From IMG/VR virus record IMGVR_UViG_2529292836_000020: 7,092 nucleotides of DNA. One strand, 5' to 3'. Shown here piece after piece: positions 1 to 7,092 of the stretch. The DNA comes from a virus. Lineage: Duplodnaviria; Heunggongvirae; Uroviricota; Caudoviricetes. Position 1 is the stretch's first letter, and every line of letters begins with the position of its first letter. A model generated the notes under the pieces. That model worked only from the letters and a program-made list of their open reading frames with translations, did no database searches and was not told the origin of the DNA. The position numbers and the translations under genes are program-made.

Positions 1-1131
1 TCAAATGACCAGTTTTTTCCACTCCTTACCGCGTACATCGTTGTAAATATCGGTCATTTTTTGATTCGAATGACCTAGCAAAATTTTGGTATCAACCCCC
101 TGCTCTCTGAACAATCGCTCTGATAAAGATCTCTGCTCATGGAAAGAGGGTGGGGTGCCATTAGCACGCCAGTTGTAATCCACAGAATCCCGGGCTTTTT
201 TAAATGCAACTGTTAATGTTGCTGGCTTAACCATCCCGCCGCGCTTAGCTGTCCCTTTCGCGTGATGGTGGTGCAATAGCCACGGACTAAGAACACAATC
301 GCGGCAGGATGACACTACATCATCCAGGGTGAGATTTAATTTATCGCAACGCAGAGCCAGAGGGATGGCAATCCGGGTTCCTGTTTTTTGCTGTTCGACA
401 TGAAGATAACCATCCCGGATATCCGAAAATTGCATTTTGCAAATATCTGAAAGGCGCTGGCCTGTCATCAGTGCCAGCAGCATACCGCGCTGTAAAAAGT
501 AACCATCCTTTTCCGCTGCGTTATAAATCATCATCCACTCATCAAAAGTCAGTCGCTGTCTTGATATCCGCACCTGCGGTTTTTTTGCCGATTCTGCAGG
601 GTTAAAGCCTGGCGGGACATCGCCCGTTTGCTGAGCTTCCCGGAAAACATCGATCAGTACCTTCCTGAAAATTTGTCCCATTCTGTTATGTCCTCTGGCC
701 TTGTACTCTTCCAGTACTGATACCACATCTTTTACGGTTATGGCATCTAACGGTCTGGTGCCAAAACGTTCATCAAATACCCTGAGAGGGGCCGCTTTCT
801 GTTTCAGCGTGTTGAGTTTGATCTCGCCGTTTTCATATCTTTCCTGTTGAATTTTTCTGTAATTATTCAGAAAAATGGTAACGGTTGATGAACCGCCGGT
901 ATCACTAATAATTTTCTCCTGCAGACTGAGCATTTGTTCCATTTGCTGCCGGGCAAGACGGCTGTTCGCTTCTGCTGCAATAGTTTCTGCCAGTTTCTGG
1001 TCAATACTGCCGAGACCGTGATTTTTGCCTGTTATGGGATGCCTGTAACGCCAGTAAACTTTGTTATTTCTTTTGTCAAAATACGGAGATAATCCCGGAA
1101 CATTGGTTTTATATTTTCGCGGGCGCGCCAT
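1..1131 (-). CDS. int: Phage integrase, tyrosine recombinase (lambda Int family), 376 aa, complete
   Basis: ATG at 1131..1129 preceded by GAGGA 9 nt upstream; stop TGA at 3..1. C-terminus SFHEQRSLSERLF...LLGHSNQKMTDIYNDVRGKEWKKL closely parallels the lambda Int catalytic C-terminus (H-x-x-R box, LLGH and catalytic Tyr motif); R in ALMTGQRLSDI fits box I. Confidence 0.93.
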   Translation of the reverse strand: MARPRKYKTNVPGLSPYFDKRNNKVYWRYRHPITGKNHGLGSIDQKLAETIAAEANSRLARQQMEQMLSLQEKIISDTGGSSTVTIFLNNYRKIQQERYENGEIKLNTLKQKAAPLRVFDERFGTRPLDAITVKDVVSVLEEYKARGHNRMGQIFRKVLIDVFREAQQTGDVPPGFNPAESAKKPQVRISRQRLTFDEWMMIYNAAEKDGYFLQRGMLLALMTGQRLSDICKMQFSDIRDGYLHVEQQKTGTRIAIPLALRCDKLNLTLDDVVSSCRDCVLSPWLLHHHHAKGTAKRGGMVKPATLTVAFKKARDSVDYNWRANGTPPSFHEQRSLSERLFREQGVDTKILLGHSNQKMTDIYNDVRGKEWKKLVI

Positions 1132-1357
1132 CTTCCAGTATCCTCTTCAAAGCAGGGTGATCTGTGGCGATCACCTCCGGCTTGTTTACCATTCCGACAA
1201 AGCGAGCTTGCGGATCCACTCGCCAGCGTCTTCCAACTTTTTTGGGGAGAGGAAATATCATTCCGGCTTTAGCGTATTTACTTAACGTACTCGGAGTTGG
1301 GACCGGTTCACTGAATTCCTCTTTTGCCCACTCAGTGAGCAGAATAAGTCTTGCCAT
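1109..1357 (-). CDS. xis: Excisionase (lambda Xis-like), 82 aa
   Basis: Small ORF directly upstream of int whose 3' end overlaps the int start by 23 nt, as in lambda xis-int. Translation MARLILLTEWAKEEF...IFPLPKKVGRRWRV resembles the lambda Xis pattern (LTLQEWNARQ...IFPPPVKDGRE). No strong SD, so the exact start is uncertain. Confidence 0.75.
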   Translation of the reverse strand: MARLILLTEWAKEEFSEPVPTPSTLSKYAKAGMIFPLPKKVGRRWRVDPQARFVGMVNKPEVIATDHPALKRILEDGAPAKI

Positions 1358-1421
1358 GAGCGTCGTTCGCTAATCATGGTCGCCGCCACTATAGCTGGTG
1401 GGCAACGACCGGGGTTGAACA

Positions 1422-2738
1422 TTAAAAATCAGCCTGATTCGGGATCAGTTTTTGCCAGATAACTGAAACGTATTTTGCCTGGTAACGGGCGTCATCAAGT
1501 GCATTATGGCGCTCACCTTCGAATGGAATAGCCGTTCTGGCATCGAAGTCTATGGCTTTCCCCAGCTCAACGATTGTGCGTACATCGCGATCGTTGTAGT
1601 AACGCCACGGGCAGGGGATCCCCTGCCGTTCGTATGAACGGCGCAAAATCGTGTTGTCGAAGTTGGCTCCATTTCCCCAGACCTGAACAAAAAATTCACC
1701 GGAGTTTTCGTCGATAAATTCCCGCAATTGTAACAGTGCATCATCTAACGGGATTTCATCGGTCATAATGGCAGACTGCGCTTCACGTGATTGCTTCAGC
1801 CACCTTTTAATGACGTCACGATCAATGACTCCGCCAGCAGTTTCCAGATCGATAGTCTTACTAAATTCCGGTCCCATATCTCCGGTTTGCGGATCGAAAA
1901 ATATTGCACCTATTGAGATAATCGGAGCATCAGGATTTTTTCCCATGGTTTCAAGGTCGATCATTAGATGGTCACACGTCCTACTGGCGGATGTGATTTC
2001 GTGATGACTGTTCACCTTAATTGAGTGATCTGCCGTCTCGCCAGTTTCATTATCGCTATTGTGATGCTGATCGCTACCAGCATTCTCCTTGTGTGGATGT
2101 TCAGCGCCTTCCATTTCCTTCGGATCATTTTCCTGAACTTCAACCTGATACTCTTCATCGAATGTTTCCTGGTATGTTGCGTCGCCCATCACCGCGCCAC
2201 AATCAGGGCAGTTGCCGCCGCCGGTCTGACCGCAGGCGGTGCAGATCTTTTCCGGTTCCTGTTGCACTACTGGTTCAGGTTGTTTCGTTTCTGGCTCGTT
2301 TTGTAACGCATTTGGGCTGTTTTGTTCCGCTTTCTGGTCGTTCTGTTCCGATTCTTGCTGGTTCTGGTTCACAGAATCGCGGGTTTCAATCCCCTTCACC
2401 CATTTCGGATCATTCGGGTCGCTAATCCCTGCAACAAATTCTCCGCGAGAGGCAGCAAGCAACTTATCGGCGTCAGGCTGGCTGATATTGGCTGCCTGCA
2501 TAATTTTGTTTACTTCGTCAGCGGTAACTTTTACCGGCTCTGGTTGTGCGGTCGTGTCAGATGCACCAGTATTTTGTTGTGAACCTGAGTATGTACCGTT
2601 TTTGCGGGCGAAATATTCTTCTTTCGTGATTTCAGTAGCCCCGGCAGCCAGCGCCTTATTCCAGACCAGAAAGTTTGTTTGCGCGACCGTATTTTTCGCC
2701 ATCCTTGTCGGTGAAGAGGAAGTAGAACGGCCCTTCAC
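1422..2738 (-). CDS. Intact C-terminal ORF of the exonuclease VIII-like gene (438 aa from GTG at 2738; contains the DEDDh 3'-5' exonuclease domain)
   Basis: Longest uninterrupted ORF in the window. Listed separately because an annotation pipeline may call it as a stand-alone exonuclease. First in-frame ATG at 2702 has no spaced SD. Confidence 0.55.
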
Positions 2739-3389
2739 GCTCTACAGATGGTTCGACTTCCACTTTGCATTCGGTTTTTTCGTTGTCCGGAATTGCCGTT
2801 TCCACTGCATCAGTTTCTGGTACTGGCGACGAGAGAGTATCAGTTGCGCTCTGATTTCTTCCTTCATCTTCAAACACGCCCTTTGTAGTCAGGTATTCAG
2901 TAATGTATTTGTTCAGTGCCACAGGGTCTTTGTGAATGTCGATCGGACGTTCACGGACAAGGCCAAAAATAGTCTGGCGGTCGTAGCGAAGGGCATCAGG
3001 CTGTTTGCGCATTGATGCCGAGATACGCTTCCAGTCTTCGCGTCGTTGTCGATAACTTCATTTTTTGCCCAGCGATGGATGCTGCCGTCAATGTTTCCGG
3101 CATCCACATCACCAGGCCAGAGAGCGTAGGCCAGTTCGTCATCCAGTGTTTTCCATGTCTGCTTGTATTCGCGATGAGTGGCAGCAATGACCGGGCTGAT
3201 TTTTCCTGTTGAATTTCAGTGTTCTGTTGATTGGCTCTGGCGCGGGCGAGATCAACAACAGACGTGTATTTTCCGGTTTCCTTGCGTTCACCTTCGCGAC
3301 GTTTTTTCCAGATGCGCATCTCTGCCTGAATTTCGGGCCATTTGGCACCAGGCTTACATTTATGCTTAACCCACCCGATGGCATGCAGC

Positions 3390-3887
3390 TTAAGTCCGGA
3401 TACATGGCGTTAACTTCTGCATTTTCATCAACGCTTCAACGATATGTCCGTCGAATGTTGCCATGTCTTCCTGCAACATTCCTGGCCTAATCACCATATC
3501 AACGGTGATGTTTTCACATGTGTCGAACTTAACCATGACAGCGTTCTGTACTTCAGGGGCCAGCTTGTCAAAAGTGACGTTCATCGGATCTGATTCAGTC
3601 TCAACCGGGACAAAGGAAGCTGACTCCTCATCCCAGCGGTTTTCCTGCATATATTCAGCATCCCAGGAATCGAGGGCAGGGCGGGGTATACCGGGTTTAT
3701 CCTCGCAAACAAGAAATTTATAAGCGCAGTCCTGAGCAGCCGGATAATGTTCCAGGAATTGCCAGTGAAATTTTGCGCGGGCGCGACGTTCATCACCGGC
3801 TTCAATGGCAGTGGCTACAGCGACTGCACCTTCTTCCTTTATTGCCTGTTCGTCCGGAATAGCGGCGCAAATAAAGACTTTACTCAT
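3390..3887 (-). CDS. N-terminal fragment ORF of the exonuclease VIII-like gene (165 aa)
   Basis: ATG at 3887 with GAGGT 9 nt upstream; ends at an in-frame TAA at 3392..3390 created by the first frameshift. Translation matches my recollection of the N-terminus of K-12 YdfE (unverified). Confidence 0.55.
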   Translation of the reverse strand: MSKVFICAAIPDEQAIKEEGAVAVATAIEAGDERRARAKFHWQFLEHYPAAQDCAYKFLVCEDKPGIPRPALDSWDAEYMQENRWDEESASFVPVETESDPMNVTFDKLAPEVQNAVMVKFDTCENITVDMVIRPGMLQEDMATFDGHIVEALMKMQKLTPCIRT

Positions 3888-3967
3888 GTTGTTTTAACCT
3901 CATTACAGATTTAAGGGTGAACAAATCCCTGCCATTGCTGGCATATAAAAATGAAACCGGATATTAA

Positions 3968-4171
3968 TTACGGTGCTGTTTTAAGTCCTGCCGGGATTTC
4001 GTTATTATCCATGTGAATAACTTTATCGACCGGATAACAGTTACCGGGAATTTTCTGTTCTGCTGCGGCAGCCATGCATTCTTTCATTGAACCGTAAATG
4101 TCAATAACCATGTCAACAGGCTCGCCAGTATTAAGAAAAACAGTCAGAGTGAGGGCAATAGCAGTATTCAT
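3968..4171 (-). CDS. ydfD: YdfD-like small protein (67 aa; Qin prophage lysis protein family)
   Basis: ATG at 4171..4169 overlaps the dicB stop as ATGA, with AAGGA 8 nt upstream. Hydrophobic N-terminus MNTAIALTLTVFLNTG. Position immediately downstream of dicB matches the Qin operon order. The ORF track's longer start at 4225 would overlap dicB by 58 nt and is rejected. Confidence 0.8.
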   Translation of the reverse strand: MNTAIALTLTVFLNTGEPVDMVIDIYGSMKECMAAAAEQKIPGNCYPVDKVIHMDNNEIPAGLKTAP

Positions 4172-4356
4172 TGCCAGTATCCTTTTTGCATCGGGCGTAA
4201 ACGGGCCAGCATTGAAAGAATGCATATTTTATTTAATAGCTCCCGTTCGTATTTTCTCTTATTAATGGCATCTTCAGTAAATACAGGGTTACTGATTCTG
4301 ACACCAATTTCAAAACAACCTTCAGACGTATTGACGTTTGGTAATAACGTTTCCAT
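4168..4356 (-). CDS. dicB: Cell division inhibitor DicB (62 aa)
   Basis: ATG at 4356 with GAGGA 7 nt upstream. Translation METLLPNVNTSEGCFEIGVRISNPVFTEDAINKRKYERELLNKICILSMLARLRPMQKGYWQ is near-identical in length and sequence to E. coli K-12 DicB as I recall it. The GTG start at 4452 in the ORF track lies inside the processing stem and is rejected. Confidence 0.88.
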   Translation of the reverse strand: METLLPNVNTSEGCFEIGVRISNPVFTEDAINKRKYERELLNKICILSMLARLRPMQKGYWQ

Positions 4357-4373
4357 TATCGCGTCCTCAACAA

Positions 4374-4530
4374 TGAATTTTGTGATGCGGTGCCTGGTGC
4401 CTCCAGGTGACGTTAACCAGTTAACAATTAACGCCGGATACAGAGAACCCACCCATAAGCCAATACGGAAGTCAACTGGTTTTAACTGTTCCGCGTGCGC
4501 TCAGCCGCATTCACCGCATCACAAAATTCA
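4374..4530 (-). promoter_or_regulatory. Perfect 19-bp long-range inverted repeat (4374-4392 and 4512-4530) forming a predicted RNA stem that encloses a 119-nt loop; candidate RNase III processing site
   Basis: Plus 4374-4392 tgaattttgtgatgcggtg is the exact reverse complement of plus 4512-4530 caccgcatcacaaaattca. On the minus-strand transcript the 5' arm begins 4 nt after the DicF U-tract and the 3' arm ends 17 nt before the dicB start codon. Confidence 0.5.
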
Positions 4531-4534
4531 CTTT

Positions 4535-4577
4535 AAAAAGGGCGGCAGAGCAGTCACGGAGTAAAACTGATACCGCC
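4535..4577 (-). terminator. Intrinsic terminator-like hairpin plus U-tract at the DicF 3' end
   Basis: Stem GGCGGUA ... UGCCGCC followed by C and UUUUU (plus 4535-4539 is aaaaa). Confidence 0.55.
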
Positions 4578-4592
4578 AAACGTCACCAGAAA
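4540..4592 (-). ncRNA. dicF: DicF small RNA (53 nt; ftsZ-targeting antisense sRNA of the dicB operon)
   Basis: Minus-strand sequence UUUCUGGUGACGUUUGGCGGUAUCAGUUUUACUCCGUGACUGCUCUGCCGCCC followed by UUUUU matches the DicF sequence as I recall it, in the expected position between ydfC and dicB. Confidence 0.88.
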
Positions 4593-4904
4593 ATTGATAA
4601 CAGAGGGCGTTGCAGCGGGGTTGTCACTTAAGCGTATGGTCAACCTGACAACCCGGTGTCCTCAACGGGGGAAGGAATAACCCCGCCATACTTACCGCCG
4701 CACCATTTCGCGGATTGCCACAACCGGAAGCGCACGGTCGACGAAAATTTAACGACAGGCTATCTATGAACCAGCTACCTCGCCGTGCGCTTTCGCGTTA
4801 TGGTCTGACTTTGCAGGGAAATATCCTTTCAGTAAACTGTCTGTGCCGGATGCTCACCCGTGGAGAACTCCTTACTTACCAACCTTAGCTTCGTTGGTTA
4901 GCTA

Positions 4905-5123
4905 TTAACGCGGGTATGTAATCATTCTGGCAATGCTTAATGCCGCTGCTTTTTCCAGATTAGTGATATCCTGCTCCAGAGCGGACAGATTTTCAGCCTG
5001 CTTAGCCCTGGCTTCATTGGCCCATTTCAGATCCTGCGCTGCATTAATTTTCTGGTACGTCCACTCATAAAGTTCATCATCGGTATAGTCTGGCGCGATG
5101 ATGACGGGTTCTCGTTTCTGCAT
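4905..5123 (-). CDS. ydfC: YdfC-like small protein (72 aa)
   Basis: ATG at 5123 with GAGGA 7 nt upstream; stop TAA at 4907..4905. Length and position (third gene of the operon, upstream of DicF) match Qin ydfC. Confidence 0.82.
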   Translation of the reverse strand: MQKREPVIIAPDYTDDELYEWTYQKINAAQDLKWANEARAKQAENLSALEQDITNLEKAAALSIARMITYPR

Positions 5124-5152
5124 ACTGATTCCTCGCGGTGCTGTTTCGCTTA

Positions 5153-5281
5153 TCAGCCGTTAGATTTTGCCGAACTGGAAAGCGCCTGTTTAAATTCGTT
5201 GAAGCTGAGAGCTTCTTCGCCTTCGGCAAGACCTTCGAAGTATTCTTCGTAAGCCTTTTCCATGATTGTGTCGAAATCCAT
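5153..5281 (-). CDS. ydfB: YdfB-like small acidic protein (42 aa)
   Basis: Not in the supplied ORF track (below its size cut-off). ATG at 5281..5279 with AGGTGA 5 nt upstream, one nucleotide after the ydfA stop; translation MDFDTIMEKAYEEYFEGLAEGEEALSFNEFKQALSSSAKSNG; stop TGA at 5155..5153. Fills the gap between ydfA and ydfC; length matches Qin YdfB. Confidence 0.72.
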   Translation of the reverse strand: MDFDTIMEKAYEEYFEGLAEGEEALSFNEFKQALSSSAKSNG

Positions 5282-5282
5282 A

Positions 5283-5438
5283 TCACTCACCTGAGTTTCT
5301 TTCCAGCCAGCGACGGGCACCATTTTCGGTTTTAAACGTTTTGCTTTTGGTATACGTCATCGCGGTGAACGTACCGTCCTGGTTGGGGAACACGCCACAT
5401 ACCAGAGATTCGCTGTTGCCAAGATCGATAGTATCCAT
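5283..5438 (-). CDS. ydfA: YdfA-like small protein (51 aa)
   Basis: ATG at 5438 preceded by GAGG 5 nt upstream; translation MDTIDLGNSESLVCGVFPNQDGTFTAMTYTKSKTFKTENGARRWLERNSGE. The upstream in-frame ATG at 5519 (78 aa) has a weak SD; the true start could be either. Confidence 0.75.
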   Translation of the reverse strand: MDTIDLGNSESLVCGVFPNQDGTFTAMTYTKSKTFKTENGARRWLERNSGE

Positions 5439-5616
5439 GCTGACCTCATTTCCCCTTAACGCCGGGGTAGCGGAACAAAAACCTGCTGCATAGTTATTAA
5501 AGTTGAACCCTGCCGTCATGTTCTTACGCCTCGGGCTGGCTACTTAACCCCTGACCACTGTCTGGTAACTCGAAGTATTGCCCTGCATTCTGTGGGGCGG
5601 GGTGGGTGGCAGGTAT

Positions 5617-5660
5617 ATAATGTACTTTGTGTTCATTGTTGTAAAGTACATTTAGTACAT
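5617..5660 (-). promoter_or_regulatory. Predicted leftward promoter of the dicB operon (-35 TTTACA at 5645..5640, 17-nt spacer, -10 CATTAT at 5622..5617) overlapped by operator-like hexamers
   Basis: Sigma70-like hexamers on the minus strand. Plus-strand TGTACT at 5621-5626 and AGTACA at 5645-5650 and 5654-5659 overlap the -10 and -35; AGTACATTT is a tandem direct repeat. Confidence 0.5.
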
Positions 5661-5735
5661 TTTGTGTGTAAAAAAATGAGATGGGATAAAGTGAAGCACA
5701 AACCCGGAGGAAGGCGCTACCGGATTTATGCTGGT

Positions 5736-6155
5736 TTAAGAGGCTTTTTGTTTTTTCTTTCGTGCTAACTCTTCGTAAATTGCATTGTACTTCTGTTTTT
5801 TCTCTTCAAGAGTTTTTAAAAGTTCATCTGTCTCACTGTCAGGGAGCTCGTCCAGAAGGTCAATGATGATTTTTTGTCTTGGATTTAACTCCTGATAGAA
5901 ACGTACCTGTCCACTTTCTTCTGTGTCCTCTCCCAAAAGATAGGTTGGTGTTGTTCCTATTAGTGTTGCTAATTCCCTTAATTTCTCCCGGCGAGGAATT
6001 GTTTCGCCATTAAACCATTTGCTAACCGCTTTTGGTGTTAATTTCATTCGACGGGCAATTTCTGCCTGCCTTCCATGTTGTTCATAACCAGCGTTTTCAC
6101 AGGCTAGCGCAAGCCTACTGGCGAACTCTTTACGCGCTTTATCTTCATGAACCAT
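5736..6155 (-). CDS. Prophage repressor, XRE-family HTH (DicA/CI-like), 139 aa
   Basis: ATG at 6155, stop TAA at 5738..5736. N-terminal HTH region (GRQAEIARRMKLTPKAVSKWFNGETIP) and C-terminal segment IIDLLDELPDSETDELL resembling the DicA C-terminus as I recall it; divergent from a cro-like gene. Confidence 0.9.
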   Translation of the reverse strand: MVHEDKARKEFASRLALACENAGYEQHGRQAEIARRMKLTPKAVSKWFNGETIPRREKLRELATLIGTTPTYLLGEDTEESGQVRFYQELNPRQKIIIDLLDELPDSETDELLKTLEEKKQKYNAIYEELARKKKQKAS

Positions 6156-6234
6156 AAGTTCAATGATATTCGCTCTTGAATGTACTGTCAGTTCTGTTAT
6201 AGCATGTACTCAAAGTTCACATTGTGAGGGTGAT
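6156..6234. promoter_or_regulatory. Divergent promoter/operator region between the repressor and cro-like genes
   Basis: Minus strand: -35 CTGACA (plus 6186-6191), 17-nt spacer, -10 TATCAT (plus 6163-6168), then 7 nt to the repressor ATG, implying a leaderless or near-leaderless transcript. Plus strand: -35 TTGAAT (6176-6181) and extended -10 TGtTATAGC (6195-6203); SD GAGGG before the cro-like ATG. TGTACT at 6181-6186 and 6205-6210, 24 bp apart. Confidence 0.5.
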
Positions 6235-6489
6235 ATGAACCAGAAAACACTTGAAGATGTAATCAAAACTGTTCGCGTTGCTGTTGTGGCCGACGTTTGT
6301 GGTGTCAGCCAAAGAGCAATCTATAAATGGATGGATAACGGAAAATTGCCTCGCACAGAATATACCGGCGAAACAAATTACGCTGAAAAAATCGCTCTTG
6401 CATCAAACGGATTATTTTCTGCCGATGCAATTTTAACTATTGGCAGGAATAAAACTACTACGAAAAAGCTGATGGGAGTTGATTCATGA
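6235..6489 (+). CDS. Cro-like HTH DNA-binding protein (84 aa)
   Basis: ATG at 6235 preceded by GAGGG; HTH segment DVCGVSQRAIYKWMDNGKLP. The ORF-track start at 6163 lies 7 nt from the divergent repressor start, inside its -10, and is rejected. Confidence 0.8.
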   Translation: MNQKTLEDVIKTVRVAVVADVCGVSQRAIYKWMDNGKLPRTEYTGETNYAEKIALASNGLFSADAILTIGRNKTTTKKLMGVDS

Positions 6490-6911
6490 AAATCAAGCAT
6501 GAACACATCCGCATGGCGATGAATGCCTGGGCGCATCCGGACGGCGAAAAAGTACCGGCTGCGAAAATTACCAAAGCGTATTTCGAGCTGGGAATGACGT
6601 TCCCGGAACTGTATGACGACAGCCATCCGGAAGCCCTGGCTCGCAATACTCAGAAAATTTTCCGCTGGGTGGAGAAAGACACCCCTGATGCGGTTAAAAA
6701 AATTCAGGCGTTGTTACCAGCTATCGAAAAAGCAATGCCACCTCTGCTGGTGGCCCGAATGCGCAGTCATAGCTCAGCCTATTTTCGGGAACTAGTGGAG
6801 ACGCGGGAACGACTGGTGAGAGACGCTGATGATTTTGTCGCAGTGGCGATCGCTGGTTTCAACCAGATGAATCGTGGTGGCCCTGCAGGAAATATTGTGG
6901 CTGTGCATTGA
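6486..6911 (+). CDS. YdaT-like (CII-like) regulatory protein, 141 aa
   Basis: ATG overlaps the cro-like stop as ATGA (6486-6489). N-terminus MKIKHEHI and position right after the cro-like gene fit the YdaS/YdaT-type module; family assignment is from memory. Confidence 0.75.
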   Translation: MKIKHEHIRMAMNAWAHPDGEKVPAAKITKAYFELGMTFPELYDDSHPEALARNTQKIFRWVEKDTPDAVKKIQALLPAIEKAMPPLLVARMRSHSSAYFRELVETRERLVRDADDFVAVAIAGFNQMNRGGPAGNIVAVH

Positions 6912-6982
6912 CTCGCAATATTCATACCGGATCGCTTCCGGCAATTTGTGAGTAAAAAGATTCGGTATCAAAAGAGGTGAGT

Positions 6983-7092
6983 ATGGCTAACGCCTGGCTC
7001 AGATTATGGCATGACATGCCAAATGACCCTAAGTGGCGAACAATTGCCAGGGTGTCAGGGCAGCCAATTGCAACAGTGATGGCAGTGTATAT
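6983..7092 (+). CDS. 5' end of a replication-region gene (possibly YdaU/DUF1376-like), truncated by the window edge
   Basis: ATG at 6983 with AAGAGGTGA SD at 6972-6980; open to the window end, translation MANAWLRLWHDMPNDPKWRTIARVSGQPIATVMAVY. Family assignment is tentative. Confidence 0.5.
   Translation, partial: MANAWLRLWHDMPNDPKWRTIARVSGQPIATVMAVY

Follow-up and report, generated by a model that had tools for sequence, protein, structure and literature searches.

The 7092-nucleotide stretch of DNA analysed here (the window) carries an ordinary, complete copy of the phage-derived dicB/DicF cell-division-inhibitor operon, in a common type of E. coli prophage at ompW that has been described before. 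With high confidence, we assign it to a lambdoid prophage of the PPompW family, as the early-left (PL-type) operon of that prophage, which is inserted in a draft E. coli genome (AQEB01000098.1) at the ompW 3' end; we propose a mechanism for the operon below. The dicBF operon, its occurrence in several prophage copies per E. coli genome, the ompW-integrating family, and the excision of that family have all been published already. For each part of the window, an almost identical counterpart has been annotated. The window contains the following features.

1-1131, minus strand: int, a lambda-type tyrosine integrase of 376 aa with the Pfam domains Arm-DNA-bind_1 (PF09003) and Phage_integrase (PF00589)
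1109-1357, minus strand: xis, an excisionase of 82 aa (Pfam PF07825)
1422-3887, minus strand: gene for a YdfE-type 3'-5' exonuclease, between xis and ydfD, 823 aa in relatives
3968-4171, minus strand: ydfD, 67 aa, 70% identical to K-12 YdfD (DUF1482, Pfam PF07358)
4168-4356, minus strand: dicB, cell-division inhibitor, 62 aa, 87% identical to K-12 DicB
4357-4538, minus strand: spacer between DicF and dicB, with a perfect 18-bp long-range stem pairing 4512-4529 with 4375-4392
4539-4591, minus strand: DicF sRNA with intrinsic terminator, matching the full model of Rfam RF00039
4592-4904, minus strand: structured spacer between ydfC and DicF, 96.8% identical to K-12 except for a 29-nt deletion and a 1-nt insertion
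4905-5123, minus strand: ydfC, 72 aa, 97% identical to K-12 YdfC (phrog_1744)
5153-5281, minus strand: ydfB, 42 aa, 98% identical to K-12 YdfB (phrog_2061)
5283-5438, minus strand: ydfA, 51 aa, 96% identical to K-12 YdfA (DUF1391, Pfam PF07151, 96.2 bits)
5615-5660, minus strand: PL-like early-left promoter, TTTACA-17-CATTAT at 5645-5617 in a promoter scan
5736-6155, minus strand: CI-like repressor, 139 aa, matching HTH_3 only (Pfam, PHROGs)
6147-6218, minus strand: OR-like operator cluster with three GAACN5GTACAT-type sites and a promoter-like site, between the repressor and cro-like genes
6235-6489, plus strand: Cro-like HTH gene, 84 aa
6486-6911, plus strand: YdaT/CII-like gene, 141 aa

All elements of the operon (ydfA, ydfB, ydfC, DicF, dicB, and ydfD) were found on the minus strand within 3968-5660, and the six are co-oriented in the K-12 order, confirming the initial annotation of a complete dicB-type operon with Qin-like gene order. 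In the blastp comparison proposed there, YdfA, YdfB, YdfC, DicB, and YdfD were 96, 98, 97, 87, and 70% identical, respectively, to the proteins of K-12 MG1655. Pfam matches were full-length for DicB (PF05358, 127.9 bits, residues 1-62 of 62), for DUF1391 in YdfA, and for DUF1482 in YdfD, and the 4-nt overlap of dicB and ydfD is the same in K-12. RefSeq uses the same ydfA/B/C and ydfD names in a 98%-identical relative. The ydfB gene is missing from the ORF track supplied with the window, but RefSeq relatives routinely list it, and the source assembly has it as a called gene. An in-frame ATG upstream of ydfA at 5519 would give a 78-aa ORF; similarity to K-12 upstream of ydfA starts only about 40 nt before the start codon of the 51-aa form. 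With its end initially set at 5660, the annotated stretch includes, besides the genes, the promoter-like site and the operators (5615-5660). A 1-nt difference at 3982 from the ompW prophage of another strain, L001, raised a frameshift artefact as the source of the 67-aa YdfD, but the 204-nt gene is also annotated in NZ_CP115984, and this length is a natural allele.

The DicF sequence scored 76.7 bits against Rfam RF00039 (gathering score 48; E = 4e-16) and was identical to K-12 dicF at 53 of 53 positions. In K-12, the DicF precursor has its processing sites for RNase III and RNase E in the equivalent of the spacer between ydfC and DicF (PMC10448788), and a DicF precursor may be processed likewise from the operon described here. 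The entire spacer from ydfC to dicB folded with a z score of -4.3, and the predicted 18-bp stem downstream of DicF stops just 5' of the dicB RBS. Positions 4379-4528 gave a sub-threshold match to Rfam STnc100 (38.5 bits against a gathering score of 47). We did not detect a structured or put/nut-like leader at 5439-5612, where the fold was no better than those of shuffled sequences (z = +1.36) and no Rfam family matched.

Both int and xis are complete ORFs with DNA identical to genes that PGAP calls intact in NZ_CP024257, and no IS lies within the window; in K-12 Qin, ydfE is cut by IS2 and intQ is a pseudogene. The initially annotated integrity of int and xis and lack of IS insertions were thus upheld. 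The operon, initially placed next to these genes, is not directly adjacent to them: a 2.5-kb exonuclease gene, present as four ORFs in this record, lies between. The integrase has the arm-binding domain and the R-K-H-R-H-Y catalytic set of a lambda-type tyrosine integrase. In an alignment spanning lambda Int 12-354, its R226, K249, H331, R334, H354, and Y363 aligned to lambda R212, K235, H308, R311, H333, and Y342 (5j0n). Membership in the PPompW family is defined by an integrase more than 90% identical to that of PPompW (PMC8112680), and the integrase in the window was identical to IntE of PPompW_132418 at 374 of 376 positions (99%), with Xis 100% identical to XisE. Judged by these sequences, the element belongs to the published PPompW family.

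The 3' end of ompW and the att repeat lie just beyond the window edge at the int side, and ompW adjoins int in both the source contig and the closest complete genome. This junction matches the attL side of PPompW. The other att copy would fall past the end of the contig, which stops 1 nt past the window, inside the prophage. No tRNA genes were found in the window. PPompW prophages excise and circularise after mitomycin C and are packaging-defective (PMC8112680). The excision competence suggested initially is plausible. For this particular copy, attR and the remaining prophage sequence lie off the contig.

The immunity region differed from that of K-12. Two operator-like sites, at 5620-5634 and 5646-5660, overlap the predicted PL-like promoter, and GAACN5GTACAT matched five times in the window against 0.28 expected, with all matches in the two intergenic regions flanking the repressor gene. 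A variant of this motif with a 6-nt spacer had no matches. The region upstream of ydfA was 98% identical to phage Tritos (prophage 3 of AIEC LF82; OV696610), while the promoter/operator DNA did not align with that of K-12 (53% over a gapped alignment); a DicA-repressed promoter with DicA operators is absent from the window, the other operator motif standing in its place. The repressor was 29% identical to DicA, its counterpart in Tritos is annotated as 'CI repressor', and the Cro-like protein showed no similarity to DicC. These comparisons suggest that the promoter and repressor are likely functional analogues of dicBp and DicA, but of a different immunity type, with 5615-5660 predicted to serve as the dicBp analogue through a different operator sequence. 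Since the repressor and operators are unlike DicA and dicBp, the regulation of the operon, including its inducer and antirepressor, may differ from that in K-12. Pfam matched no peptidase domain in the 139-aa repressor, which makes direct SOS cleavage doubtful. Beyond the OR-like cluster, the Cro-like and YdaT/CII-like genes (6235-6911) form the start of the early-right operon.

Considering these features together with published work on K-12 and PPompW, we propose a model where, in the lysogen, the 139-aa CI-like repressor would occupy GAACN5GTACAT operators on either side of its own gene and keep the leftward promoter (about 5617-5645) silent. Derepression would then produce a single transcript running through ydfA-ydfB-ydfC-DicF-dicB-ydfD and onward to exo-xis-int. 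From this transcript, DicF would pair with the ftsZ and manXYZ mRNAs, among others, and DicB would bind MinC and target it to ZipA, which would block Z-ring formation. DicB may also inhibit ManYZ-dependent phage DNA entry, and YdfD may act as a lysis protein. Integration and excision by Int and Xis would take place at a 121-bp att repeat within ompW. In this model, excision, repression, RNA processing, and the activities of the proteins are each carried over from K-12 and PPompW by analogy. In K-12, DicA repression, processing by RNases III and E, the targets of DicF and DicB, and lysis by YdfD have been described (PMC10448788, PMC6832061), and cell-division inhibition and phage exclusion upon induction likewise come from K-12 experiments (PMC6832061, PMC10448788).

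In this record, four ORFs (3390-3887, 2996-3319, 2656-3012, and 1422-2738) take the place of a single exonuclease gene. An intact 823-aa orthologue is present in L001, and the 1-nt indels that split the gene are private to this record and probably a draft-assembly artefact. We consider it fairly probable that the window is in part an assembly chimera, in which the draft assembly combined reads of two co-resident dicB-bearing prophages, one located at ompW and the other near potC. The dicB-ydfD allele and the exonuclease frameshifts would then be artefactual, and the real ompW prophage would have an intact exonuclease gene and possibly another dicB-ydfD allele. Between 1980 and 4480, we observed more than 20 switches between the ompW-prophage allele of L001 and the allele of a potC-side prophage (L006, from related ETEC genomes). 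Differences private to the window comprised about six indel events against four substitutions, and three of the indels lie at or directly beside positions where the L001 and L006 alleles differ. Furthermore, none of the 4011 complete genomes carrying the mosaic segment reached 99% identity, the best match (98.9%) spanning 6 nt more than the query, and the source sequence, a draft contig, stops within the prophage. However, real gene conversion among co-resident lambdoid prophages could also yield fine mosaics, and L001 and L006 come from other strains, so that they may differ from the true parental alleles. A chimeric origin would leave the identity of the operon unchanged, since dicB-ydfD occupies one position in the two parental types alike. 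With the dicB-ydfD segment being the allele of a different prophage, the precise join seen in this record may have been created by chimeric assembly.

A true pseudogene is a less likely explanation, in which the prophage would be decaying from its middle with int, xis, and dicBF still intact. Four ORFs replacing one 823-aa gene would fit such decay, the same exonuclease gene is annotated as frameshifted in PPompW records of STEC O145:H28, and relatives contain other pseudogenes, but several frameshifting indels with almost no private substitutions would be unusual for natural decay, and the indels coincide with the allele-switch points. If the fragmentation were real, polarity on xis and int expression from PL would be conceivable. 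We regard as slightly more doubtful still that the fine ompW/potC mosaic across exo-ydfD-dicB is real and arose by repeated gene conversion between co-resident dicB-bearing prophages. Such exchange would imply that a DicB/YdfD allele was swapped into a prophage that kept a K-12-identical DicF while its exonuclease gene decayed. The record illustrates how paralogous prophages in draft assemblies can yield apparent pseudogenes.

It is very improbable that the element is a less-decayed, excision-competent Qin itself, of the same lineage, integration system, and immunity: four of the five operon proteins are 87-98% identical to K-12, DicF is identical, K-12 ydfE, cut short by IS2, corresponds to the N-terminus of this 823-aa exonuclease with 96% identity, and K-12 has IS2 and the intQ pseudogene where the window has xis and int, yet Int has no significant similarity to IntQ, the repressor, Cro-like protein, and promoter/operator DNA diverge from the K-12 immunity region as described above, and insertion is at the ompW 3' end instead of ydfJ, where Qin sits (PMC8112680). 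The element has neither the IntQ-type integrase and ydfJ insertion nor the DicA/DicC immunity region that mark the Qin (PPydfJ) lineage. The initial description as a less-decayed relative of Qin was therefore abandoned. To call the prophage of this genome "less decayed" would also be premature, with a contig that stops 1 nt past the window and an exonuclease gene that is fragmented in this record. In the closest complete relative, the 47-kb ompW prophage has IS21-like and IS66 insertions and frameshifted gpJ, tape-measure, and DUF968 genes. In these sequence comparisons, Qin has only the dicBF-exonuclease module in common with the element, a pattern usual for the mosaic genomes of lambdoid phages.

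The layout recurs widely: of 5426 complete E. coli genomes, at least 830 contain 80% or more of the window. The dicB-ydfD segment is found in 4558 of the 5426, with a median of two copies, and this set of genes already has RefSeq annotation in hundreds of genomes. The dicBF operon is a mobile module of lambdoid early-left operons that is found with different immunity regions and integrases, so that results on DicA/Rem regulation in K-12 are not automatically transferable to such copies. For the role of dicBF in a working phage, Tritos is already available for study.

The operon shares with that of K-12 Qin the six elements, their order and strand, the dicB/ydfD overlap, and a YdfE-type exonuclease gene next to it. 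It differs by the 29-nt deletion between ydfC and DicF, a 9-nt insertion between DicF and dicB, and a YdfD that is 4 aa longer. Where K-12 has IS2 and the intQ pseudogene, xis and a lambda-type int lie downstream in the window, and the upstream promoter/operator and the repressor belong to a different type of immunity, with no DicC homologue.

PPompW prophages (Nakamura et al. 2021, PLoS Pathog, PMC8112680; e.g. LC567822) were 95.9% identical in DNA over window positions 1-5123 and share the insertion at the ompW 3' end, the att-side sequence, and the int-xis-exo-ydfD-dicB order. In contrast, PPompW_132418 has a dicA/dicC-type immunity region, is annotated with other genes in place of ydfA and ydfB, and bears T3SS effectors as cargo. 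It also has a 21-bp secondary attB, for which a search of the window was negative. The present host falls among relatives of the ETEC O25 type and not with STEC O145:H28.

Tritos, a functional temperate phage that forms plaques on MG1655 hsdR- (PMC9928086), was 94.5% identical over 1414-7092. It shares the block of exo-ydfD-dicB-DicF-ydfC-ydfB-ydfA and the CI-, Cro-, and CII-like genes, with DicF annotated, and has the same immunity region, and its gene layout also starts with int-xis before exo. However, the nucleotide match does not extend to its integrase (1281 nt) and excisionase, which are different ones, and its dicB/ydfD allele is K-12-like.

The integrase is also a homologue of lambda Int and retains every catalytic residue. 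The lambda PL operon, which includes kil and int-xis, matches in position and logic, being an early-left operon under a CI-type repressor that has a host cell-division inhibitor on board and xis-int at its end. The window is not known to contain homologues of lambda N, gam/bet/exo, or kil. Inhibition of division, the task of Kil in lambda, would fall to DicB and DicF in this element.

A complete dicB-type operon, which the initial annotation had placed at 3968-5660, was confirmed there by comparison with K-12 and by Rfam and Pfam matches. An ORF listing together with Rfam gave the following components, starting from the promoter side, with identities to the corresponding proteins of Qin, a cryptic prophage of K-12 MG1655.

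Components of the dicBF operon
5283-5438, minus: ydfA, 51 aa, 96% identity
5153-5281, minus: ydfB, 42 aa, 98% identity
4905-5123, minus: ydfC, 72 aa, 97% identity
4539-4591, minus: DicF, Rfam 76.7 bits (gathering score, 48), 53/53 nt identical to K-12 dicF
4168-4356, minus: dicB, 62 aa, 87% identity
3968-4171, minus: ydfD, 67 aa, 70% identity, overlapping dicB by 4 nt

Pfam families DicB, DUF1391, and DUF1482 were matched over their full length in the operon proteins, and YdfD at 67 aa represents a natural allele. An in-frame ATG upstream of ydfA (5439-5519, minus) would produce a 78-aa form, which is the one chosen in the gene calls of the source assembly and of Tritos, a plaque-forming phage. 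Because this extension is not conserved in K-12, the 51-aa start is better supported. In a three-way DNA alignment, the window, K-12, and Tritos were nearly identical over a stretch that begins about 40 nt ahead of the ydfA start and runs through dicB. Within this stretch, the window has 29 nt deleted from the ydfC-DicF spacer, 9 nt inserted between DicF and dicB, and one further 1-nt insertion. The 29-nt deletion relative to both K-12 and Tritos (window ~4846-4865, minus) is flanked by two CACGGGTG copies, and the closest complete relative has it too.

Folding analysis indicated that the spacer between ydfC and dicB is strongly structured (z=-4.3), and a fold test of the leader that precedes ydfA detected no structure. 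A perfect 18-bp long-range stem (4512-4529 with 4375-4392, minus) brackets the DicF-dicB spacer and stops just upstream of the dicB RBS, with G-C pairs at two places where K-12 has G-U wobbles. An Rfam match to STnc100 at 4379-4528 fell below threshold (38.5 bits; gathering score, 47).

Upstream of the operon, the genes and sites around the repressor are arranged as in a lambdoid immunity region, with OL and OR, in which dicBF is the early-left (PL) operon.

Immunity region
5736-6155, minus: HTH repressor, 139 aa (Pfam, PHROGs)
6235-6489, divergent from the repressor: Cro-like gene (Pfam, PHROGs)
6486-6911: YdaT/CII-like gene (Pfam, PHROGs)
5620-5660 and 6147-6218, flanking the repressor gene: GAACN5GTACAT copies (motif search)
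5645-5617: promoter-like site among the left-hand copies (promoter scan)

Five copies of GAACN5GTACAT were found where 0.28 would be expected, all of them in the two intergenic regions beside the repressor gene. The two clusters probably represent OL and OR, the operators of an immunity type that Tritos also has. Taking the regulation, processing, and targets of K-12 dicBF as a model (PMC10448788, PMC6832061), the window copy likely works by homologous steps. The repressor would keep the leftward promoter off, and derepression would yield a polycistronic RNA from which RNase III and RNase E would free DicF, with its 3' end at its own terminator. DicF would repress the ftsZ and manXYZ mRNAs, DicB would divert MinC to the septum and also block ManYZ-dependent phage DNA entry, and YdfD would serve as a lysis protein. 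Because an HTH was the sole domain that Pfam matched in the repressor, this protein, like DicA, probably escapes direct SOS cleavage, and an antirepressor may be needed for induction.

Downstream, past ydfD, the order is an exonuclease gene, then xis, and then int.

Genes downstream of ydfD
1422-3887, minus: YdfE-type 3'-5' exonuclease gene, present here as four ORFs
1109-1357, minus: xis
1-1131, minus: int, with lambda arm-binding and catalytic domains (Pfam)

As originally described, int and xis are uninterrupted; both are whole, and their DNA is identical to that of the strain F5505-C1 genes, which are annotated as intact. Int aligned with lambda Int over residues 14-375, with all six catalytic residues conserved (R226, K249, H331, R334, H354, and Y363). 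The window also lacks IS insertions, in contrast to K-12 Qin, in which IS2 interrupts ydfE and intQ is a pseudogene. The proposal that the element is a less-decayed relative of Qin failed, however, because Int, the repressor, the Cro-like protein, the promoter/operator DNA, and the insertion site all differ. Protein comparisons found no significant similarity between Int and IntQ, none between the Cro-like protein and DicC, and 29% identity between the repressor and DicA, and the promoter/operator DNA did not align with that of K-12. Qin occupies ydfJ (PMC8112680), whereas the window element lies at ompW. Its only Qin-like portion is the dicBF-exonuclease module, and K-12 ydfE is the IS2-truncated N terminus of the same 823-aa exonuclease (96% identity). 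By these sequence comparisons, the element is another lambdoid prophage with the same accessory module as Qin.

The exonuclease is encoded by a single 823-aa gene in relatives but by four ORFs in the window. We compared the region with the ompW prophage of F5505-C1 and with a dicB prophage on the potC side in a related strain (NZ_CP115984), a second dicB prophage type in related ETEC genomes. Between 1980 and 4480, the window switches more than 20 times between the alleles of these two prophages, and the following differences, private relative to both, split the gene.

Private differences in the exonuclease gene
2658: 1-nt insertion
3041, 3213, 3394, and 3418: 1-nt deletions
3479-3486: scrambled stretch

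The alternation suggests either a chimeric consensus or inter-prophage gene conversion. A draft-assembly chimera, with 1980-4480 as the collapsed-repeat consensus of two paralogous prophage copies, fits better than natural decay: private differences are mostly indels (with only four private substitutions across these ~3 kb), three indels lie at or adjoin sites of allele difference, and none of the 4,011 complete genomes carrying the segment reached 99% identity to it (best match, 98.9% and 6 nt longer than the query). Real gene conversion together with pseudogenisation of the exonuclease gene is a less likely alternative. In the potC-side prophage (~6600-6700 of L006, our extract), dicB and ydfD are kept, but the aligned sequence diverges where DicF would lie, such that a canonical DicF may be missing from this prophage.

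A single recorded contig, AQEB01000098.1 from draft assembly GCA_000354895.2, contains the 165-aa exonuclease fragment, and the window corresponds, in reverse complement, to the terminal 7,092 nt of this contig less 1 nt at the contig end. The contig stops 1 nt past window 7092, ~110 nt into the replication-gene region, so that it covers only the int-side part of the prophage; the break probably falls at a repeat common to other prophages. On the other side of int, ompW, yciC, yciB, and yciA follow in the contig, and the int-side junction sequence matches the attL side reported for PPompW prophages. Nakamura et al. described these as ompW-integrated, lambda-like prophages with a 121-bp att, which excise and circularise after mitomycin C, as detected by attP PCR, and are packaging-defective (PMC8112680). 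Int and Xis of one member, PPompW_132418, are identical to the window proteins at 374/376 and 82/82 residues, and a series of PPompW records share 95.9% identity with window 1-5123. In the closest complete relative, the 47-kb ompW prophage (NZ_CP024257, 2974349-3021845) has been hit by two insertions, IS21-like and IS66, and by frameshifts in three genes (gpJ, tape-measure, and DUF968). Because of these lesions in the relative, a viable phage does not follow from intact int and xis; excision of the window prophage is plausible, and virion production is doubtful. Cargo of the relative's prophage includes hokD, iss, an Ail/Lom-family outer-membrane protein gene, and iraM.

Tritos, a spontaneously induced, plaque-forming prophage of AIEC LF82 (PMC9928086), matches the window in the immunity region and the whole exonuclease-to-CII-like block (94.5% over window 1414-7092; 98% upstream of ydfA), and DicF, DicB, and YdfD are already annotated in its record. 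Of 5,426 complete E. coli genomes, 830 contain at least 80% of the window and 4,558 contain the dicB-ydfD segment, for which the median copy number is two; the carriage of several dicBF-bearing prophages by many strains has been noted previously (PMC6832061). The content of the window is already known, with a published or annotated counterpart for every part.
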